DNA of 14,285 nt from a virus (taxonomy: Duplodnaviria; Heunggongvirae; Uroviricota; Caudoviricetes): the IMG/VR virus record IMGVR_UViG_2660238128_000002, one strand, 5' to 3'. Shown here one piece after another: positions 1,697 to 11,231 of this stretch. Positions within the stretch are counted from its first letter, which is position 1, and each line of letters starts with the position of its first letter. The position numbers and the translations under genes are program-made. Below the pieces are notes generated by a model that worked only from the letters and a program-made list of their open reading frames with translations, ran no database searches and was not told the DNA's origin.

Positions 1697-2851
1697 TTAA
1701 ATAGTATACCCACTTACACCAACAGTTAAGCTAGATACTGATGATGTTGTCCAAGTGAATGTATAATAAATTGTTTGAGGGTTCTGGATTAGAAGCTCAT
1801 AGTAAAAATCGACGCCAGTAGATCTACTTAAACCAGCATATGCCTGGAAATACCCTACATCCTGGGTATCAGAAGCAATTGAAGCAGCTGCATAACCATC
1901 ACCTTCCCCTGTGTTACAAAACACATAACCAGTACAGGTTGCTGCGTTTTTCGGGATCGCGTTTGTAAGAGAAATTGGAGTATACCCACCTGGGTTGCTA
2001 CTGGTTGACAGTACATCAACTCGCTGGGTAGCGAACTTTCTCCCTCTTTGGTACCCAATTTTTAACAGCGCCCCAGATGTTGTTCCCCACACCGATACCA
2101 AAGCGCTCGCCGTATATCCTGCTGGCATGTTTGCACCACCATATACCGTGGGAGCAATAATAGAAGTGACGTCCTGAGCAAGTAATGCCGAGGTATCTGT
2201 CGTCGGGTTATAAATCAGGTAAATTGCAACCCAACCACTGGCTGGCGCACTACCAGTATCCATGCCACCCGCCCCAGTCGTGGTGAGATTGATGGTTTTG
2301 TTGACCGAGCTTAAACGGTACTGCTTACCAGATAATGACTCACCAACAATGACTTGATCAGCAGTGAACGTTGCTGATGCCGACGCTATTGCCACGCTCA
2401 TTTTCTGGTTAACAGCCTGACCAACCACGCCGGTGAATGATTCTCGCATCTTGAGGTAATCACTTAGCGGCGACCACCCAGCTGAAGAAGTATTAGGGTC
2501 GTTTGTGTTGTTGTTGATAGTGCTGATATAAATCGTTGCGCCGTCATCACTGATGAGAACAGCTCCAAGAGGATACCCTCCAACCGCCGTTGAAAAATCT
2601 GAGTCAAAAGCATTAAGAGCGCCTGCGCTAGACCATCTGCAAAGGGAAGACAACTCATACAAGATTTGATTCATGTCCTGCCCTTTGGGAGGAAGGCCCC
2701 CGGCAGATTTCAAAATCATTGTTATTGGTGGGAATCCTAAATCGTAGGATGCTGTATTATCTCCAGCTGGAGTTGTCGGCAGAAGATCCTCTCTTTGACC
2801 ATTTACTCCAAAAGGTTTTGGTTGTTTTTTGGGTGAGTCAGAGCGATTCAT
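1697..2851 (-). CDS. Phage tail fiber protein
   Basis: 384-aa ORF, last gene of the baseplate operon, directly after the gp48-like gene (3-nt gap). Gly/Ser/Thr/Asn-rich with repetitive beta-rich character (e.g. TINLTTTGAGG, YTFTWTTSSVSSLTVGVSGYTI), typical of fiber proteins. Position matches Mu gene S. Confidence 0.75.
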   Translation of the reverse strand: MNRSDSPKKQPKPFGVNGQREDLLPTTPAGDNTASYDLGFPPITMILKSAGGLPPKGQDMNQILYELSSLCRWSSAGALNAFDSDFSTAVGGYPLGAVLISDDGATIYISTINNNTNDPNTSSAGWSPLSDYLKMRESFTGVVGQAVNQKMSVAIASASATFTADQVIVGESLSGKQYRLSSVNKTINLTTTGAGGMDTGSAPASGWVAIYLIYNPTTDTSALLAQDVTSIIAPTVYGGANMPAGYTASALVSVWGTTSGALLKIGYQRGRKFATQRVDVLSTSSNPGGYTPISLTNAIPKNAATCTGYVFCNTGEGDGYAAASIASDTQDVGYFQAYAGLSRSTGVDFYYELLIQNPQTIYYTFTWTTSSVSSLTVGVSGYTI

Positions 2852-2853
2852 AC

Positions 2854-3492
2854 TTAATTCCTATAAAATGTGCCATCATTAAACGGGTAGGCGTCAGATG
2901 AAAAACCGAAATAAGGACTAATAATTTTTCGAATATTTACCTGAACACCACTAGGAACTGGCATTACTTCATAATTTGTGAGAATAGATTCCTCGTATGG
3001 TGCAAGTTCAAACTCGAATGTTATTCCAATGGTCATATCTCGATAATTCACACAGTATGCCCTTCCTCTTTGAAAAAATAATATCTTTAAAAACTTGTTG
3101 ATTTCTGGAATCGTAGCAATACTTATGTTCGTAAACGCTTTGCAAAATATGAGTGTTCTGTAAGCCTCGTCACTCAATCTAACATTTGTTGTCTCCTGTG
3201 CTCCTCCAAAAAAAGGAGAGTTGTTGAACGGAGCGGGGTAATTTGGTTCTGCATTATCAGCTTCACTGAATCCGAAGGAATTGGTCTCTATAGGTGAGTT
3301 AATATAGCGACTTATCCCTACTATTTTCCCCCACATATCCAGGCCGAATGTATCACAGGTAGTCAAATCCCATACTTTTTTAATAAACTCATCAGTGAAA
3401 TCATCAAGGCTAATTGCCTGATTAAAGGTATCAATGATGGATAGTAATTTTTTGCTTGCAGAGTACTGGGTAAGAATTGTGTCCTCCCACAT
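2854..3492 (-). CDS. Baseplate/tail protein, Mu gp48-position (DUF2612-like)
   Basis: 212-aa ORF between the baseplate J-like gene and the tail fiber gene. Size and position match Mu gp48. Family call by synteny and recollection only. Confidence 0.6.
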   Translation of the reverse strand: MWEDTILTQYSASKKLLSIIDTFNQAISLDDFTDEFIKKVWDLTTCDTFGLDMWGKIVGISRYINSPIETNSFGFSEADNAEPNYPAPFNNSPFFGGAQETTNVRLSDEAYRTLIFCKAFTNISIATIPEINKFLKILFFQRGRAYCVNYRDMTIGITFEFELAPYEESILTNYEVMPVPSGVQVNIRKIISPYFGFSSDAYPFNDGTFYRN

Positions 3493-3502
3493 ACATTTCC
3501 CC

Positions 3503-4732
3503 CTACGATAATGTAACAGTGATATCTGATTCCTGAATGGTTGGAACCTGGTCTATGCCCATAGTCACAGCCGGTCCGTATAGTGAACCATCGAGAGAAA
3601 CTTCAAGAGACAAAATTCCAACTGTATCAGGAGATATTGAAATAACAGGGGCATAGTATTTACCAGCATTTATCGTCGAACCAATTCGTGCCTTTCCAAT
3701 ACCCTCATATCCTCCATTGAACACAGTGACAATCATTTCCTTTACTTGTTTAGTAATATCACTTGGGGGATTTAGTGAAGCATCGACATTTACCTTAAAG
3801 TAAACCCGCGTAGGTGATGCCTTTTGCCATTGCATTACATAAGATGGATATGGCGGCATGTAATTAACGTTATCGTAAACAGTGAACGTTGTATTACCAT
3901 TCATATTGGCCCCGGGGTTATAAGTATTGAATATTGACTCAGCAACATCCGTATCAGCCCCGCCATAAACACAAATATAAACAGAATGCGCAAGAATCGG
4001 GAAATTCGTTGTTCCTTTATTTACTGTTTCTGCAGTTCTGTTTGACCATACGTAAGCATCAAGCACACCATCAGTCGCAAGTAACGCGGCTAATGTAGAT
4101 GCGTCCTGATTTCGACTGTTTCTGGCAACTGATTGTCTCCGGCGAGTTTCAAAGGCGATCCGTGATTCAACATCAACACCAACGACTCCAGGGCTAGTAT
4201 TATTTACAGCATCCCACCCGGAAACGGCTCGATAAATCTGGTTCAGTGAACCTGCGGCACACGGAATCGGCCCGGTTGTTGTGTTGACAAACTGCACATC
4301 AACAGAGCCTGATGAGGGTATTACAGCATTATCAATTGACTGATATATATACCCGCTCGTATCCACAGCGGTACTCCCTGCTGGTATTGTTGTTCCAACC
4401 TGACCAATGCATGTTGCTGTAACAACTGTCCCCTGAGCAGCGATCCGCTCCATAAAGTAAATCCGACCAATCCCGTCCTGGAATCTGCCGGTTGAAAAGT
4501 CAGGGTTAATTTGATTAAACAAACAAAGAAGCTTGTCGTATTCCTGAGCGATAATTTCAGTGTCAGACTGGGCGATCTGCCCTTGCGGTGAACTCAGTGA
4601 CTGACTTGCGCCACCGCCAAGGGCCGTTGACATGTCTGTAAGTCTTCCCGCCAATACATCTGCTATATCGGGGACTGAAAGACCGTTTTCAGTGATGGTT
4701 ACATCAGGAACAGCCGTATTTAATGTCGTCAT
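3503..4732 (-). CDS. Baseplate J-like wedge protein (Mu gp47 / P2 gpJ-like)
   Basis: 409-aa ORF. Its stop overlaps the start of the upstream 119-aa gene by 4 nt. Size and position are typical of baseplate J family proteins in Mu-like tail modules. Confidence 0.65.
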   Translation of the reverse strand: MTTLNTAVPDVTITENGLSVPDIADVLAGRLTDMSTALGGGASQSLSSPQGQIAQSDTEIIAQEYDKLLCLFNQINPDFSTGRFQDGIGRIYFMERIAAQGTVVTATCIGQVGTTIPAGSTAVDTSGYIYQSIDNAVIPSSGSVDVQFVNTTTGPIPCAAGSLNQIYRAVSGWDAVNNTSPGVVGVDVESRIAFETRRRQSVARNSRNQDASTLAALLATDGVLDAYVWSNRTAETVNKGTTNFPILAHSVYICVYGGADTDVAESIFNTYNPGANMNGNTTFTVYDNVNYMPPYPSYVMQWQKASPTRVYFKVNVDASLNPPSDITKQVKEMIVTVFNGGYEGIGKARIGSTINAGKYYAPVISISPDTVGILSLEVSLDGSLYGPAVTMGIDQVPTIQESDITVTLS

Positions 4733-5088
4733 AAGGTGGCCTGTGCAATATTACCATTGATATCTGTAACGCGGATTGTCCCGCGAGTTGTGCGTGTATT
4801 CTTGTCAAAGAAAACTGACGCCAGAGCATCCTCAACAACGGGTAATTTGAGTGCTTCAGCCTGCATTTTCTGAGCAATAAAACCAGGAGATGGTCGCCTG
4901 CCAAGAACTTCTGCCTTCCATGGGATCCCAAGTGTATTGTCGTAATAACACTCTCCTGAAAACACCAGGCATGCACTGGCGACATCCTGAGCAACAGAAT
5001 ATGATTCTTCTGCGATCGCCAGATTGCCATTTCCGTCAAGCGTCAAGTCCCACGTAGAAGTGTCCAGCTGCATAGTTCTGTATGTCAT
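4729..5088 (-). CDS. Small baseplate assembly protein (Mu gp46 / gpW-like position)
   Basis: 119-aa ORF translationally coupled (4-nt overlaps) to both neighbours. It is the small protein that conventionally precedes baseplate J. Confidence 0.55.
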   Translation of the reverse strand: MTYRTMQLDTSTWDLTLDGNGNLAIAEESYSVAQDVASACLVFSGECYYDNTLGIPWKAEVLGRRPSPGFIAQKMQAEALKLPVVEDALASVFFDKNTRTTRGTIRVTDINGNIAQATL

Positions 5089-5777
5089 GTCGGTTTATCC
5101 GTTGCATTGGAATTTATTGTTGACCCACCACTTTGTATTCCTGAAACAGAATGTTTGTGATTGTTATAGTTGTCCCTTAAATTTTTAACAGTAGATGACT
5201 GTGAGTCTGCGTTATCCTGAATATCGCCACTAACTTTAAGTAAAGGCGTATTCATGTTGACTCCATCAGGAGCATCAATATTTAACGATGAGCATTTGAT
5301 ATTTAGTGGGTTAGGCGTGGTTATATTTATTGCACCGTCAGCGAATTCAATGAATTGAGTAGGTGAAATGTTTAATACCCCACCAAGATAAATCGCATCC
5401 GATTTACTGTGTCGTCTTTTGCTTCCAGGTACTGATTCTTTACGATTTTTTCTTACCAGTGATGTGTCTTTGTCGCATACCGCAATCAGACCAATATCAC
5501 CTGCCACAGGGTCCATAATTACAGCGCTGTTTCCTCTCTGCAACCGCCATACGGGAAGATCATATAAAACCGAGTTGGAAATCATTTTTCCTGTACGGTC
5601 TGTTCTGGTTAGTAAAGGAAGAACATCAACAACTAAATCTGGTGCTTCCCCTCTGACTTCCTGAACTTTCGCTAACTCAATGAAGAAATATCCAGACATC
5701 AGCATCTCAAAAATATATTCCTGAGATTGAGCCTCACTTACCTGAGCAGGCGTTGGAGTAAATAGTTGCTTATCCAT
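5085..5777 (-). CDS. Baseplate spike / assembly protein V-like (Mu gp45 position)
   Basis: The ORF track gives 5085..5870 (261 aa), but its first ~31 codons overlap the upstream gene. The internal ATG at 5777 (MDKQLF...) gives an 8-nt ATGGATAA start/stop overlap typical of coupled phage genes. Start choice is uncertain (alternatives at 5846 and 5870). The C-terminal region is Gly/Ser/Asn-rich. Confidence 0.6.
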   Translation of the reverse strand: MDKQLFTPTPAQVSEAQSQEYIFEMLMSGYFFIELAKVQEVRGEAPDLVVDVLPLLTRTDRTGKMISNSVLYDLPVWRLQRGNSAVIMDPVAGDIGLIAVCDKDTSLVRKNRKESVPGSKRRHSKSDAIYLGGVLNISPTQFIEFADGAINITTPNPLNIKCSSLNIDAPDGVNMNTPLLKVSGDIQDNADSQSSTVKNLRDNYNNHKHSVSGIQSGGSTINSNATDKPT

Positions 5778-6946
5778 TATTCTGTTGCGCCTCTGCTCTT
5801 TGTTCCGCTGTTCTGGCGGCAATACATATTGAGTGCCATGAACCATTTGGCATCCATGATGATAATTCATGCCGAACGGAGGTTAACTTATACCTTCCGC
5901 TTGCATGTGGTAGTTCTGTTTTGATATCCACATATCTTCCAATGCAAAGGAGAGATGAATATTGCGTCTGAAACATCAGCCCCCCATTTGAAAATACAGG
6001 ATATCCAACAAGTCCGTATTCTCTGGATATAAACGGAATTACATCATCTCTGTTTTTTTCTGAAGGCCAGAACTCTACTTTTGCAGGTGGCGTAGCTGAC
6101 ATTGCCAGTCCATAATCTGAACAGACTCTATAAAGTTGCTCAAAAACACTTCCTTCAAAATGCGGACTTCCTGATGTTGTCATCCCTTTTACATTATTAA
6201 ACACAGCTTCATAACCTGCACTTGCACAAATGGATGAGATGACATCTTCAACACTTTGCGCCCCCTGTGCTGTAAACGGACTTGCTGGCATGTTCTGCAA
6301 ATCAACATTAGAAGAAGCTGTTATCATCAGGCTGCTTTCAGGAGCAGAATTCATGTTTGCTATTGATGAAAGCATCGTGCCAGAGAAAACAAGAGAATCA
6401 TCGGCAAATACTTCAACATTTAGCTTCTGCCCTTCTCCAATAATACCATCAGCCTTCCCTGATATATCAGCAAGCCTTTCAATTCCTAACCCGTAAAGAG
6501 ATATATCAGCCTGAGCGCCTCCCCGACCGGTAACAAAGTTCAGGGATACTGTTGACTTAACATTTCTGATGGAGATTTTATTGTTCCCATTTTTATCAAA
6601 TGCTGATGATTCATTCGTGAAGTCAAACCGAAGACTGTGATTTTTATACAAGCTCGTTTTCCTCGATGTAGTACAGCAAGTAACGGCTACCCAAGCCTTC
6701 CCATTGCGGATCCGATTCCCCATCATTATCAATGAAAATAAGGTCTCCCTTAAATCCAAGGTAGGAATATCTTACCATCTTATTCCCATACAGACATGGA
6801 ACGCCCTGCATAATTGGGACTTCATTAACAGTTAAATCCATGTACATAAAACTCTGTCGCTGAACAAGTTTTATATTACATTGCTGACCAGACAGACTTA
6901 CCGAAATGGACTGAGATTTGCTGGGAAGAACAGATACTGTAATCAT
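5770..6946 (-). pseudogene. Baseplate hub-like gene (Mu gpP/gp44 position) split into two overlapping reading frames
   Basis: A 100-aa ORF (6644..6946) and a 329-aa ORF (5770..6759) overlap by 116 nt in different frames. The downstream frame is +1 relative to the upstream one and begins at a TTG. Together they would encode about 390 aa, the size expected for a gpP-like protein. Both frames look protein-like across the overlap. Interpreted as a frameshift mutation, sequencing error or unusual +1 recoding. Confidence 0.5.
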
Positions 6947-7758
6947 GTACTCGCCTTAACTATATTTTTTGCAATATCTGCCGCTTTTTTTGTTGCGCTG
7001 TTTGTGACTTCGAGTATTGGTTTGGATACCGTATCAAGAGCACTCTGGAATTCAGTCTTGATTGTGTCGGAGATTTTTCCAGTGATTTCGCCAACAGATG
7101 ACTTCAGTGATGACCATGATTTACTTAGCTCATCGACAGTAGATTCCCTGGCTCCGCCATTGGTTATTTGCGGATCAACTCCTACACCTCCCTGTGACTT
7201 ATTGTTATCCGTTGGCTTCTGTTCTGACTGAGATCCAGAGAGGATAACCTCCATTTGCTGAATGACCTCCTGAAAATCAAGATAAACCGTCAGAAGAGTC
7301 ACCCCTTTTTGAGAGTTAACTTCGTAATAGTGGTCAACAAGGTCGAAACTCTCCAGAGTTTCCTTTGGCGTTTCAATATCGTATGTTTTTGCAGAGGACA
7401 GCATCATTTTGATTGTGTTCAGCGTGCTGTTCTGGCTTGTGAATGTGAGATCGAAAATATTCGGGATGTTGCCGGAAAAACCAGTAAGACCATTTACGAT
7501 GATTGCGCATCTTACCCTGGCGGGTTCTTTAACTTTGTTGATGGACTGGTATTTCCCTTTCTCCACCGGAGCGTTTGTTATTTGCGCCCTGCCACTTGGC
7601 TGCACGGATGCCATACCACTGAACTCAAGAGCAACCTCGCCAGTTTCCCTGTCACGAATCACATACTGAGGATGCAGAACGCTGTCGATGATCGAAAGCG
7701 GAGAGCCACCACCGATAGCATTGAATATGTCTGCTGTGTTTAAATCGATTATGCCCAT
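6943..7758 (-). CDS. Tail/baseplate protein in the Mu gpN position (function unassigned)
   Basis: 271-aa ORF, first gene after the immI-like cassette. Good RBS (GGAGAG, then 3 nt, then ATG). Stop overlaps the next gene's start. Assignment by position only. Confidence 0.5.
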   Translation of the reverse strand: MGIIDLNTADIFNAIGGGSPLSIIDSVLHPQYVIRDRETGEVALEFSGMASVQPSGRAQITNAPVEKGKYQSINKVKEPARVRCAIIVNGLTGFSGNIPNIFDLTFTSQNSTLNTIKMMLSSAKTYDIETPKETLESFDLVDHYYEVNSQKGVTLLTVYLDFQEVIQQMEVILSGSQSEQKPTDNNKSQGGVGVDPQITNGGARESTVDELSKSWSSLKSSVGEITGKISDTIKTEFQSALDTVSKPILEVTNSATKKAADIAKNIVKAST

Positions 7759-7770
7759 CTACTCTCCATT

Positions 7771-7795
7771 AAACAAAAACCCAGCCGAAGCTGGG
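7771..7795 (-). terminator. Intrinsic terminator downstream of the Bro-N antirepressor gene
   Basis: On the minus strand: CCCAGC-TTCG-GCTGGG hairpin (6-bp GC-rich stem, tetraloop) followed immediately by TTTTTGTTT. Lies between the antirepressor stop (7815) and the next gene's start (7758). Confidence 0.6.
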
Positions 7796-7814
7796 TCGTT
7801 GCGTTGGTTATCTG

Positions 7815-8693
7815 TCAGTAGTTATGTACTGAAGGAGGTAATTCTTTATTCTTAAGTCTCATCCATGCGGAAAGATTCGTTGGTCCGTCTGGCTCATTGA
7901 TATCAACATCTCGTGTGTGATTGATTAAAACGTCTCTCGCTATATCGATAATACGGGAGAACTCATAACCGCAGTCATGACATCTGCCGGAATAGTTCGA
8001 TTGAATTTGTTTTAATGCCGGATACAGTTCGCGGAATAATGCCTGTGAACGGTTGGCATAATCCCATAACCATACAAGGCTGTTTGCTTCTTTTGCAGAA
8101 ATCTCGTTGGTTTTCTTCTCTTGTTTGCCGATGAACTCACCTTCAAGCACTACCCTGTGGATGTACTCTACGGCCAGCGGGATTTGTTCAATTGAAAGTT
8201 CATCAATGCTGTCAATACCAAAACGCTGATGAACCATATTGTATGCATCGTCATAGCGAAGTCCTTTCTTTCCTACCAGCATGTTTACTGCATCGCGTAG
8301 CGGTGTTCTTTCCTCAACAGTGGTTTTCTTTCCTTTTACATACTCGCCATGTTTGCGAATTGAAGGCAGAACTTCTGCTGTTACCCACTTGCGGAATTTG
8401 TGTGGGACTGAACCTTTATTGACTGCATCGCGGCAGCGCAGAACCAATGTATACATACCTGATTCGCTCACAATGCTTAGATTCTGCTCACCACCAAGGG
8501 TGTAACTTAAAGTTACTCCCTTTTCATCGTCATCAAGTGCAGTAAGCGCCTTGCGTGAGTTAGTCAAAGCTAAAGCATCACAAACATCTTTAGCTACAAA
8601 CCACGGCTCGCCGCACTTGTTAATGACGCGAATTTCACTGTCGCCAAATTTGAAGATGGTGAAATCGTTTTGTGCCTTTGCTATACTTTTCAT
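7815..8693 (-). CDS. Bro-N domain antirepressor (Ant-like)
   Basis: 292-aa ORF. The N-terminus carries the Bro-N signature ([10 protein letters not shown]...[16 protein letters not shown]...[19 protein letters not shown]). The C-terminal half is a separate region of unassigned fold. It is the second gene of an operon headed by a small ribbon-helix-helix gene, as in P22 arc-ant. Confidence 0.75.
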
Positions 8694-8768
8694 GTCAATA
8701 TTTCCCGATCAGATTTGTTGATGTAGAAGCCTCGCCAGTTCCCGCTGTCGGGGCTTCGTTATTTTTAG
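8679..8768 (+). ncRNA. Candidate Sar-like cis-antisense small RNA covering the antirepressor ribosome-binding site
   Basis: Plus-strand extended -10 element TGcTATACT (8679-8687) inside the first codons of the antirepressor gene. About 40 nt further on the plus strand is a hairpin GAAGCCTCG...CGGGGCTTC (8726-8757, 9 bp including one G-U pair) followed by GTTATTTTT. The predicted ~75-nt transcript is antisense to the antirepressor RBS and the intercistronic region. The terminator is oriented for the plus strand only. Confidence 0.4.
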
Positions 8769-8926
8769 AGAGCATTCCGCATTTTCTCCCGGTACTTCAA
8801 CCACCAAGCAAGTCCCTGAACCAACACTGAGTTTTCTGACATCCCCTCTTCCTTGGCGATGCGTTTCACCTCCTCCTTAAAACGGTACGGATACCGAAGA
8901 GTTGTCTTCACTTCATTCTTTTCCAT
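8765..8926 (-). CDS. Arc-like ribbon-helix-helix transcriptional repressor (53 aa)
   Basis: ORF absent from the supplied track (below its cutoff). ATG at 8926 is preceded by GGAGTG with an in-frame stop immediately upstream. Translation: MEKNEVKTTLRYPYRFKEEVKRIAKEEGMSENSVLVQGLAWWLKYREKMRNAL. Shows the ribbon-helix-helix pattern (beta-strand TTLRYP, helix A, turn, helix B). Same length as P22 Arc and directly upstream of the antirepressor. Confidence 0.65.
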   Translation of the reverse strand: MEKNEVKTTLRYPYRFKEEVKRIAKEEGMSENSVLVQGLAWWLKYREKMRNAL

Positions 8927-9027
8927 TGATCACTCCTTTTACGTAATGGCATTATGCCTTGAAAGCAATATGCTATCATTGAATATAAATAGCAATATGC
9001 CATCATTGTTTTTTTTGAGGTGATGTT
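8927..9027. promoter_or_regulatory. Divergent promoter/operator region between the Arc-like and Mnt-like genes
   Basis: 100-bp AT-rich intergenic region. Two 18-bp direct repeats, AGCAATATGCTATCATTG (8964-8981) and AGCAATATGCCATCATTG (8991-9008), 17/18 identical, 27 bp apart. Perfect palindrome GGCAT-T-ATGCC at 8948-8958. Plus-strand -35-like TTGAAA (8959-8964) with a TATAAA -10-like element (8984-8989). Minus-strand CATAAT -10-like element within the palindrome. Confidence 0.5.
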
Positions 9028-9348
9028 ATGGCTGAAAAGCAGGTTAAAGATTACGAAAAGTTTGTTGTGCGTTTCCCTGACGGGATGAGGGACGCGATTG
9101 CGGAGAGAGCCAAACGAAACGGGCGCTCTATGAACTCAGAGATTGTGCAGATACTGGAAGATGCCTTGAATGCAGAAAATACTCTTGGGGAAATAGCAGA
9201 CAAAATCAACAGCGTCTCGGTTCCGTTAAATGTTGATGCGCTAGTTCAACTTCAAGCCCAAGTGATCGCCATGCAAAAAGAAATACAGGAAAAGTTCAGA
9301 GAGCAGAACGAAAAGTTGAGAGAACTGCTAAACAAAAAACCCACCTGA
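9028..9348 (+). CDS. Mnt-like (Arc/Mnt family) ribbon-helix-helix repressor with C-terminal coiled coil
   Basis: 106-aa ORF with RBS GAGG. N-terminal FVVRFPDGMRDAIAERAKRNGRSMNSEIVQILEDAL closely resembles the Mnt/Arc DNA-binding motif as I recall it (...NGRSMNSE...DAL). The C-terminal half is heptad-like and charged (oligomerisation). Divergently transcribed from the Arc-like/antirepressor operon. Confidence 0.75.
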   Translation: MAEKQVKDYEKFVVRFPDGMRDAIAERAKRNGRSMNSEIVQILEDALNAENTLGEIADKINSVSVPLNVDALVQLQAQVIAMQKEIQEKFREQNEKLRELLNKKPT

Positions 9349-9365
9349 CGGTGGGTTTTCATTTT
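9332..9365. terminator. Bidirectional intrinsic terminator
   Basis: Hairpin AACCCACC-TGAC-GGTGGGTT (8-bp stem), flanked by an A-run upstream and a T-run downstream, so it is followed by U-tracts on either strand. The Mnt-like stop codon TGA lies in the loop. The hairpin is about 50 nt downstream of the tape measure stop on the minus strand. Confidence 0.7.
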
Positions 9366-9416
9366 TACCGTCCGACTTCAGTCAACAGGCACAAACAGAG
9401 AAAACGTTACAGGTGA

Positions 9417-11231
9417 CTAAGGCATTGCACTGGAAAATGCCGCGTTTGTTGACGCCCGGCTAACTTGCTGATTGACGCTTCTGGTAAGAGCATCAACTGT
9501 TGTCGGGTTACTGTTAACAACTACCGTGCCAATAGTTGTACTGCTGCTACGGCTGTTGTCAATTTTTGATGTTGTCTGGCTTGGTGTTGAGGCGATGCGT
9601 TGCTGCTGCTGATAGTAAGCCAGCGTCTCGTTTTCTTTTGCATTAAGAGCGGCGCGAATCTTTGGTACATATTCTCGCGTTTCTTTCGGCAGGGTGTTCC
9701 AGTATTTGGATGATGGTGAATCAAACCCGGTACTGGATATATATTTTAACTTTTTGTCTACATTACCCATCCCCCAGTTGTAAGCCATCAGCGCATGGTT
9801 AACATTGCCTTTATAGTGCTTTAGCAAATCCCTCATGAACCTTTCAGCAGCAGCGCGAGATTTCACCTCATCAAGGCGCTCATCAATCCCATCCCCGACC
9901 TTTAACCCGTACGCTATGGCAGTATCCTTCATGAACTGATACGGACCAACAGCACCTTTCGGACTATAAAGTTTTTTACCACCACTCGATTCCACCTCAC
10001 GAATGGCGTCAAGGAGAGAATCCATGCTTACTGGCTTTACTCCGTCAGGGAGAGGGATATCTGGCTGAATGTTATTGCCATAAATCTCATCTCCTCTACG
10101 CCCAAAATCAGTATCAAAACCCATGCTGCGCATGGTATCTCCAAGTTCACGTTTAGAGTAATCAAACGATCCTTTAGCTGCCCCCTCAATGTTTTCCCTG
10201 TCATTGTAGAGATACAAACCATATGCTATTAACCCTGCTAACCATGGAGGAAGGGCGCCGCCTGTAAGTTTGCTTCCTACATATGCTGCTGCCAATAGTT
10301 TCAGAGCCTCTTCCGCACCACCAACTGCCTTTGTGAATTGCTTCGTCATATTCCCGGCGTCATTGAAAAAGCCAATGATGTCGCCATGATGTTTCTCAAT
10401 CCAGGAACCAAAAGCCTTCATCCCGTCAATAACGTCTGGAGCGAATGCCATGGCTAAATTTTGCTTTAATCGGGAAAACTCTGAATCAAGTTGCCCAAGG
10501 GTGGCAGCAACCTTCTCCTGCTCTTTTACCTGCTGTGCTGTAATACGGGATTTCTTTGTTTCTGAATCGACAAGCTGCTTAAGTTCCCCTGATTTTATTT
10601 TAGCGGCATCTGTCGGATCGAACCCTGCGGCAGCCATCACCTGCATCAGGTTTTCTTGAGAATGAGTCTTGCCATAGCGAGAAAACTCAGCAAGAGCCTT
10701 GTTTGGGTCGCCGAGCTTATTGATATCTAATCCGGTACGAGCTCCAAGAATCAGCAAATTTTGGGCAGCGCCAGTAAGCCCTCCCATAACAGTCGGATCG
10801 GCAATATTTGCCAAAGCCATTCTGGCATTCCCAGAAGATGAAATGAACGAGTCACCGTTAAGACCAGCCTGGCGAAATCCCCGCTGAACACCAAACATCT
10901 TATTAACATCAGAGCCGAAAAACTTGGCCTGTTGGCTGGCCCTCACAATTTCGTTGGCAGTAGATGTAAAAAGTTGCTTGACTCCATACAACCCTGCGCC
11001 AATTCCCAAAAATCCAGCGGCTGCTGTTGTCACGTTGCGGAAAGCTGAAACAGCGGTTTTACCGAACCTCTCCGTTTCCTGCCGCTGTTTTTCAAGTTCC
11101 TTTAGCCTTTCCTTCTCAGCCCTAGAAAGATCTTTGTTTAATTTACTAACTTCATCTTTTACTTTCCGTTTTCCATTCAGGAATTCATCGGCCTTAATTG
11201 TGACCTTGTAGGCCAACTCATTGATAATCAT
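9417..11231 (-). CDS. Tail tape measure protein with C-terminal soluble lytic transglycosylase (SLT) domain
   Basis: 604-aa ORF after the chaperone pair. N-terminal coiled-coil/charged region (EKERLKELEKQRQETERFGK) and Gly/Ala-rich hydrophobic segments. The C-terminal part has the SLT-type motif (EVESSGG...GAVGPYQFMKDTA...AYNWGMGNV, with the catalytic Glu in the E-S context). Confidence 0.75.
   Translation of the reverse strand: MIINELAYKVTIKADEFLNGKRKVKDEVSKLNKDLSRAEKERLKELEKQRQETERFGKTAVSAFRNVTTAAAGFLGIGAGLYGVKQLFTSTANEIVRASQQAKFFGSDVNKMFGVQRGFRQAGLNGDSFISSSGNARMALANIADPTVMGGLTGAAQNLLILGARTGLDINKLGDPNKALAEFSRYGKTHSQENLMQVMAAAGFDPTDAAKIKSGELKQLVDSETKKSRITAQQVKEQEKVAATLGQLDSEFSRLKQNLAMAFAPDVIDGMKAFGSWIEKHHGDIIGFFNDAGNMTKQFTKAVGGAEEALKLLAAAYVGSKLTGGALPPWLAGLIAYGLYLYNDRENIEGAAKGSFDYSKRELGDTMRSMGFDTDFGRRGDEIYGNNIQPDIPLPDGVKPVSMDSLLDAIREVESSGGKKLYSPKGAVGPYQFMKDTAIAYGLKVGDGIDERLDEVKSRAAAERFMRDLLKHYKGNVNHALMAYNWGMGNVDKKLKYISSTGFDSPSSKYWNTLPKETREYVPKIRAALNAKENETLAYYQQQQRIASTPSQTTSKIDNSRSSSTTIGTVVVNSNPTTVDALTRSVNQQVSRASTNAAFSSAMP

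Follow-up and report, generated by a model that had tools for sequence, protein, structure and literature searches.

The question raised by this locus is whether the short interval between its arc-like and antirepressor genes encodes an antisense RNA, as the corresponding interval does in phage P22. According to reviews, the sar RNA of P22 is 68/69 nt long and pairs with the ant mRNA, whose ribosome-binding site it blocks (PMC12197685, PMC7968456), and it was detected in recent small-RNA sequencing of that phage (PMC13397905). The first-pass annotation of the window (the whole 14,285-bp stretch of DNA analyzed here) had proposed a Sar-like antisense RNA in a P22 immI-like module, and this proposal is supported by position, sequence, fold, covariance model, and gene context. 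We consider it highly probable that a homologue of P22 sar is encoded in the interval, and that this cis-antisense RNA, about 70 nt long, lowers the translation of Ant at the ant ribosome-binding site.

The genes surrounding the interval form an immI module, with a divergent mnt, an arc-ant operon, and an Ant containing the P22AR_C domain; only the Arc-like gene is weak by Pfam. The ant gene, the predicted target of the RNA, is found in the ORF list at 7815..8693 on the minus strand and encodes a 292-aa antirepressor with an N-terminal Bro-N domain (E 7e-20) and a C-terminal P22AR_C domain (E 5e-28). Over the C-terminal 171 aa this protein and P22 Ant have 83% identity, and protein comparison found no significant similarity between the N-terminal approximately 120 aa (Bro-N) and P22 Ant. 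Relative to P22 Ant the protein is a domain chimera, and the first five codons (M-x-S-I-A), which carry the predicted promoter Psar, are still common to both. The arc-like repressor gene, also from the ORF list (8765..8926, minus strand), is the first gene of the arc-ant operon. Its 53-aa product is equal in length to P22 Arc, and over 29 aa the two are 38% identical (E 3e-5); the gene also occupies the position of arc in P22, and its product has a sub-threshold match to Pfam Arc (E 0.0038, 17.5 bits against a cutoff of 20.4). The mnt-like repressor gene (9028..9348, plus strand) is divergent from arc-ant and encodes a 106-aa protein with an Arc/ribbon-helix-helix domain (Pfam Arc, E 1.6e-19) that is 47% identical to P22 Mnt over 43 aa.

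The arc-mnt intergenic region contains a candidate Pant for the arc-ant operon (ATGATA-17-CATAAT, 8951..8979, minus strand), which is a consensus match from the promoter scan only. Two direct copies of AGCAATATGC[T/C]ATCATTG occur in the same region at 8964-8981 and 8991-9008, with a spacing of 27 bp, and a related partial palindrome, AATGGCATTATGCC, occurs at 8945-8958. The repeats and partial palindrome between 8945 and 9008 are probably the Arc and Mnt operators, overlapping the candidate Pant (8979..8951, minus strand).

In the P22 RefSeq record, sar is annotated as a misc_RNA at 15021-15090 on the minus strand, with its promoter at 15097-15125 (minus strand) inside ant and its terminator at 15021-15058 (minus strand). 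The P22 ant ATG is at 15091 and arc, on whose stop codon the sar terminator ends, finishes at 15022. When reverse-complemented, this region aligns in register with positions 8640-8790 of the window, and TTGCTATACT, TTCATGT, and GAAGCC...GGGGCTTC are invariant in the alignment. As judged by sequence, the window element is a homologue of P22 sar. The two have in common a promoter in the first ant codons, a 5' end abutting the ant ATG, and a terminator on the arc stop codon, as well as the mnt, arc, and ant gene set and the location of the module inside the late (virion) operon, in the same orientation. The RNAs themselves have diverged, with the window RNA being 59% identical to P22 sar in an alignment of 80 variants (described below).

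The leave-out covariance model (below), Rfam family RF00262, and the predicted fold place the predicted sar-like RNA at 8694..8765 on the plus strand, flanked by the ant ATG (8693) and the arc stop codon (8765-8767), with the 3' end falling within the U-run at 8762-8766. The predicted transcript most likely starts at G8694, the base adjoining the ant ATG, because this base is aligned with the annotated 5' end of P22 sar. The same alignment predicts a length of 69-73 nt (about 70) and not the approximately 75 nt originally proposed. The predicted RNA is an exact complement of the minus-strand mRNA over all 71 nt of the arc-ant intercistronic region. It had been suggested that the transcript would cover both the ribosome-binding site and the start codon of ant; the ribosome-binding site is covered, but the start codon probably is not, since by the P22 alignment the RNA begins past the ATG.

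The ant start codon reads as 'cat' at 8691-8693 on the plus strand, which puts the extended -10 element of the predicted Psar, TGcTATACT (TGCTATACT, 8679..8687, plus strand), within ant codons 2-5. The coordinates of this element, already noted in the first-pass annotation, were confirmed, and a consensus scan found it independently as GTGAAA-17-TATACT with an upstream TG (8659..8687, plus strand). The -35-like hexamer GTGAAA (8659..8664, plus strand), 17 bp upstream of the -10, is weak, and GGTG at the -35 position is invariant among the window, P22, and Escherichia phage Kapi1. The extended -10 in TTGCTATACT is identical in the window and P22 and is in register with the annotated P22 sar promoter. 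At the sequence level, then, the element has a putative promoter of its own in the first ant codons, reading away from ant. Promoter-like and terminator-like sites are not enriched over shuffled sequence in a 1-kb scan (2 found and 1.3 expected for promoters, 2 found and 0.9 expected for terminators). The motifs alone are therefore unconvincing, and it is the fold and the homology to P22 sar that raise the case above chance.

Conservation of the promoter was followed in two collections. BLAST with 8600-9030 identified relatives in Kapi1, Edwardsiella phage GF-2, a Klebsiella phage, PhiR5_1, and the Stx-type phage 2851, giving a small set of 7 sequences with the window and P22. TTGCTAnAnT followed by TCAT is kept in all 7, while the residues encoded over the -10 differ (S-I, T-I, S-L, and I-V). 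Because the -10 consensus (TG-n-TAnnnT) is kept while the residues vary, selection appears to act on the promoter and not on the protein. The second collection consisted of 80 loci, with the Ant C-terminal domain as the only criterion of selection. These loci are close relatives and not 80 independent observations; by regular expression, 79 of the 80 have the hairpin together with a -10 of the form TTGCTA(T/A)A... or TTGCTAAGCT. At the remaining locus, L127, the hairpin expression found nothing, but the covariance model found sar there with 68.4 bits, and it was not counted as an exception.

The predicted transcript folds into two stem-loops, a 5' hairpin presenting the anti-Shine-Dalgarno sequence and a 3' terminator hairpin followed by a U-tract. 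In the minimum free energy fold, stem-loop 1 extends over 8694..8722 (plus strand), and its loop contains UUUCCC (8701..8706, plus strand), which is complementary to the Shine-Dalgarno sequence of ant (GGGAAA, minus strand, 9 nt before the ATG). The equivalent loop of P22 sar has UUUCUCC. The stems differ between the two phages, being GUUGGU/ACUGAC in P22 and GUCAAUA/UGUUGAU in the window. Stem-loop 2, the 32-nt terminator hairpin (GAAGCCTCG.CCAG....CTGT.CGGGGCTTC, 8726..8757, plus strand), differs from that of P22 in having an internal 1x1 mismatch and another inner helix. Folding of the predicted transcript, which had been suggested as a check, gave -26.4 kcal/mol (z = -5.19), with none of 200 shuffled sequences folding as well; for P22 sar the values are -29.5 kcal/mol and z = -5.26, with the same two hairpins and the anti-Shine-Dalgarno sequence again in loop 1.

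The hairpin and U-tract are present in the sequence at the positions first reported for them. Directly 3' of the hairpin is GTTATTTTT (8758-8766), running into the arc stop codon at 8765-8767, and the U-tract of the intrinsic terminator within it (TTATTTTT, 8759..8766, plus strand) overlaps that codon. The terminator is oriented for the plus strand only, as had been claimed, because the hairpin is followed on the minus strand by TACATCAACAAA and not by a T-run. The scan found terminator-like hairpins on the plus strand alone. No plus-strand gene requires a terminator at this position, since the called genes from 1697 to 8693 are all on the minus strand; the plus-strand ORFs in that interval are short and overlap called genes.

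Rfam at its gathering threshold has no match anywhere in the window. In a permissive scan of 8600-8850 the best family is sar (RF00262), at 8695..8761 on the plus strand over the full model length (1-68), with 28.5 bits and an E value of 5.7e-4. The element has gone unannotated because this score falls below the RF00262 gathering score of 43 bits. P22 sar itself scores 97.8 bits against the model. Among the relatives, Kapi1 passes with 72.4 bits, and L016 (41.5), the Klebsiella phage (38.6), PhiR5_1 (34), GF-2 (32.1), and phage 2851 (29.5) are all below threshold; RF00262 misses two further sar variants altogether. Since several other variants also score below 43 bits, the model appears to be narrow and P22-centred, and its threshold to be a score cutoff and not a biological feature. 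The permissive scan also gave a match to ctRNA_pGA1 (RF00236), a plasmid copy-number antisense RNA, with 23.2 bits against a gathering score of 45 (E 0.011); the context is a prophage tail operon. This match and those to ceN125 and BcKCsr2 are weak, far under their thresholds, and in the wrong context, and they are explained by the GC-rich hairpin and U-run. The c4 RNA has no match in the window at the gathering threshold and none in 8600-8850 at E values up to 10.

Compensatory changes in the hairpin are seen among the 7 sequences of the BLAST set. For a larger sample, a pattern scan of viral contigs was made, which yielded 80 distinct sar-like variants after removal of six false positives lacking the 3' half of the hairpin (L056, L085, L089, L095, L120, and L121). 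The scan pattern required the -10 motif and GAAGCC, and the conservation of these two elements was therefore judged only from the BLAST set and the Ant-selected loci. Across the 80 variants, 91.3% of the cells in the two helices are paired, compared with 26-48% in controls that have the 3' partners slid by 1-3 columns, and the covariation score, with 137 double-change cells, is 0.365, compared with at most 0.163 in the slid controls. Hairpin 2 is paired in 97.2% of its cells, and RNAalifold gives it a 13-bp consensus with 6 covarying pairs changed on both sides. In helix 1, both-side changes occur in 4 of the 7 pairs. Folded individually, all 80 variants form two hairpins, with helix 1 beginning at nucleotide 1 in 78 of them.

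A covariance model that excluded the query and its close relatives was then used for the homology search. This model, R1, was built from 25 variants including P22, none of which exceeds 67% identity to the window or has the window's type of stem 1. In the MAFFT alignment of these 25 sequences the variant classes are out of register with one another at stem 1, so R1 was given hairpin 2 alone as its structure; for stem 1, the 80-sequence alignment and single-sequence folding served as the test. Searched against both strands of the 14,285 bp with filters off, R1 has a sole significant match, at 8694..8765 on the plus strand, with 58.6 bits and an E value of 8.1e-11, spanning the full length of the model. 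The window variant is among the lowest-scoring true matches, and no other distinct variant in the sample is more than 81% identical to it. Each of the 80 Ant-selected loci has exactly one covariance-model match, antisense to ant.

The closest genomic relatives are E. coli prophages, with 98.4% identity over 8500-9400 (Z1323CEC0001); E. coli LWY24 is 100% identical over 8655-8775. In E. coli Z1323CEC0001 the related prophage adjoins tRNA-Arg and intS, and its immI module is between a gene for an SLT-domain protein and baseplate genes, with DUF3383 and baseplate J/gp47 nearby. The window has the same organization, with the module inside the tail operon, the gene for an SLT-domain protein (9417..11231, minus strand) on one side of it and the baseplate genes (7758 and lower) on the other. 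The host phage is a contractile-tail-type E. coli prophage (baseplate J, DUF3383) and not a P22-like podovirus; apart from the ant module, a comparison of the rest of the window with sequenced phages found only a weak match, of 70% identity, to a Vibrio phage. The module is arranged like the 'ant moron' described for P22-like phages (PMC2629481), among which epsilon34 is annotated with Sar and the ant moron (PMC2629481). Directly downstream of ant, at 7778..7797 on the minus strand, is a terminator-like hairpin (GACCCAGCTTCGGCTGGGTT followed by TTTGTTT), and P22 has an annotated terminator at the equivalent relative position. The window hairpin is strong and lies inside the tail operon, and late transcription would have to read through it to reach the baseplate genes.

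In Kapi1, a P22-like phage, the ant DNA is 96.6% identical to that of the window, and the two have stem-loop 1 in common. The Megablast homology to Kapi1, and likewise to EC.P3, stops precisely where the hairpin does, at its last base (8757), and beyond that point the window has a different arc/mnt allele, closest to that of GF-2. The window sar is a hybrid, with stem-loop 1 of the Kapi1 type and hairpin 2 of another type. Among the Ant-selected loci L127-L206, whose ant/sar sides are nearly identical, at least 11 different arc-side sequences start right after the hairpin. The sar hairpin has the look of a mosaic joint, with ant alleles on one side and arc/mnt alleles on the other.

Of 5,426 complete E. 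coli genomes, 456 (about 8%) contain sequence related to 8655-8775, in up to three places each; O157:H7 EDL933 and O104:H4 are among them. Among the E. coli matches listed, only protein-coding genes are annotated under the sar element. In Kapi1 (L001, 2482-2485), GF-2 (L003, 765-775), and phage 2851 (L006, 1635-1645), the annotated ant start is upstream, overlapping arc and crossing sar. As judged by alignment with P22, the true ant start in these three phages is probably the ATG adjoining the putative Psar, and the annotated N-terminal extensions of Ant (approximately 22 aa in Kapi1) are probably artefacts.

By analogy with P22, we infer that the RNA is produced from the window locus and represses the translation of Ant. 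Psar, inside ant codons 2-5, would fire away from ant on the plus strand, with transcription proceeding from G8694 and stopping at the intrinsic terminator (8726-8757 and the U-tract) that overlaps the arc stop codon. Loop 1 of the folded RNA would present UUUCCC to the ant Shine-Dalgarno sequence, and pairing with the ant mRNA would occlude the ribosome-binding site and reduce the translation of Ant. Because arc-ant is co-oriented with the surrounding tail genes, the same brake would also act on read-through late transcripts, which would escape the action of Arc and Mnt at Pant. Late read-through of this kind would carry ant beyond the reach of the two repressors, which suggests a clear role for an antisense RNA.

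The RNA could also be made but act mainly in other ways, by transcriptional interference (collision with, or occlusion of, transcription from Pant and the late operon) or by causing termination or degradation of the duplexed mRNA. Psar is head-on to both Pant and late transcription and is about 260 bp from the candidate Pant, and none of the results computed here separates these mechanisms from occlusion of the ribosome-binding site. We nevertheless regard them as improbable main activities, given that the conserved two-hairpin fold with the anti-Shine-Dalgarno sequence in loop 1 suits pairing in trans and would be unneeded for interference alone, and that base pairing at the ant ribosome-binding site is the action ascribed to P22 sar in reviews (PMC12197685, PMC7968456).

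It is slightly less probable still that there is no antisense RNA and that the hairpins serve the arc-ant mRNA only, in processing, stability, or arc-ant translational coupling, with the -10-like motif conserved for some other reason. The reverse complements of both hairpins do form in the minus-strand mRNA, covariation cannot distinguish the two strands, and R1 has a weak minus-strand match at 8721-8757 (16.5 bits, E 0.096). The strands are distinguished, however, by the G-U pairs, which are common in the plus-strand reading (at three pairs, UG in 51, GU in 46, and GU in 39 sequences) and which would be A-C mismatches on the opposite strand, arguing that the plus-strand RNA is the selected molecule. 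The U-tract likewise follows the hairpin on the plus strand only, in most of the variants, and TG-n-TAnnnT is retained where the encoded amino acids change. The orthologous P22 RNA, moreover, has been demonstrated experimentally (PMC12197685, PMC13397905). Least probable is that the interval is part of a small plus-strand coding ORF: two such ORFs, 8672..8830 (52 aa, GTG start) and 8551..8721 (56 aa, TTG start), are in the mechanical ORF list. A plus-strand ORF is not conserved, however, because loci alike on the sar/ant side have entirely different sequences 3' of the hairpin. In addition, the predicted transcript holds only AUG-UAG (8721-8726), and the covariation points to selection at the RNA level.

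The preferred reading, a cis-encoded antisense RNA homologous to P22 sar, can be set beside two other small phage RNAs. The c4 antisense RNA of P1 and P7 also acts on an antirepressor mRNA, blocking the ribosome-binding region of ant, with loop sequences that set its specificity (PMC12197685). Unlike the window RNA, which would be a convergent cis-antisense transcript, c4 is processed from its target's own transcript, and it is an analogue and not a relative. The OOP RNA of lambdoid phages, also cis-antisense, is 77 nt long, has a promoter and an intrinsic terminator of its own, and opposes a lysis-lysogeny regulator (PMC12197685). It differs in targeting the 3' end of cII and triggering mRNA decay, and its sequence and location are also different.

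A literature search found nothing on sar outside the P22-like phages. The present finding is modestly new in that it concerns a divergent sar below the Rfam threshold, in a different type of phage, with an Ant whose N-terminal part resembles that of P22 in no significant way; it leaves the understanding of how sar works unchanged. It completes the immI annotation of the window, in which two ribbon-helix-helix repressors and a predicted antisense RNA control the output of the antirepressor, the RNA being the layer that would still be able to act on read-through from the late operon.

The ant genes with which sar apparently occurs have at least three types of N-terminal domain (P22-type, Bro-N, and Rha), and the phages differ in the type of their virion genes. 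Most of the variants tested, with the exception of Kapi1, score under the Rfam threshold, and the curated sar family misses the window and several other clades (28-42 bits, compared with the required 43). With a broader sar model, a conserved regulator of prophage induction would be recognized in several hundred E. coli genomes, Shiga-toxin prophages among them. We suggest only tentatively that sar is a broad family of antisense RNAs of variable specificity and not a curiosity of the P22 group, and the co-resident sar variants in E. coli genomes could cross-talk. If this is true, variants of stem-loop 1 could constitute specificity classes, and on these it could depend whether prophages in one host silence each other's antirepressors, and the conserved terminator hairpin could be a recombination joint for the swapping of arc/mnt immunity alleles.
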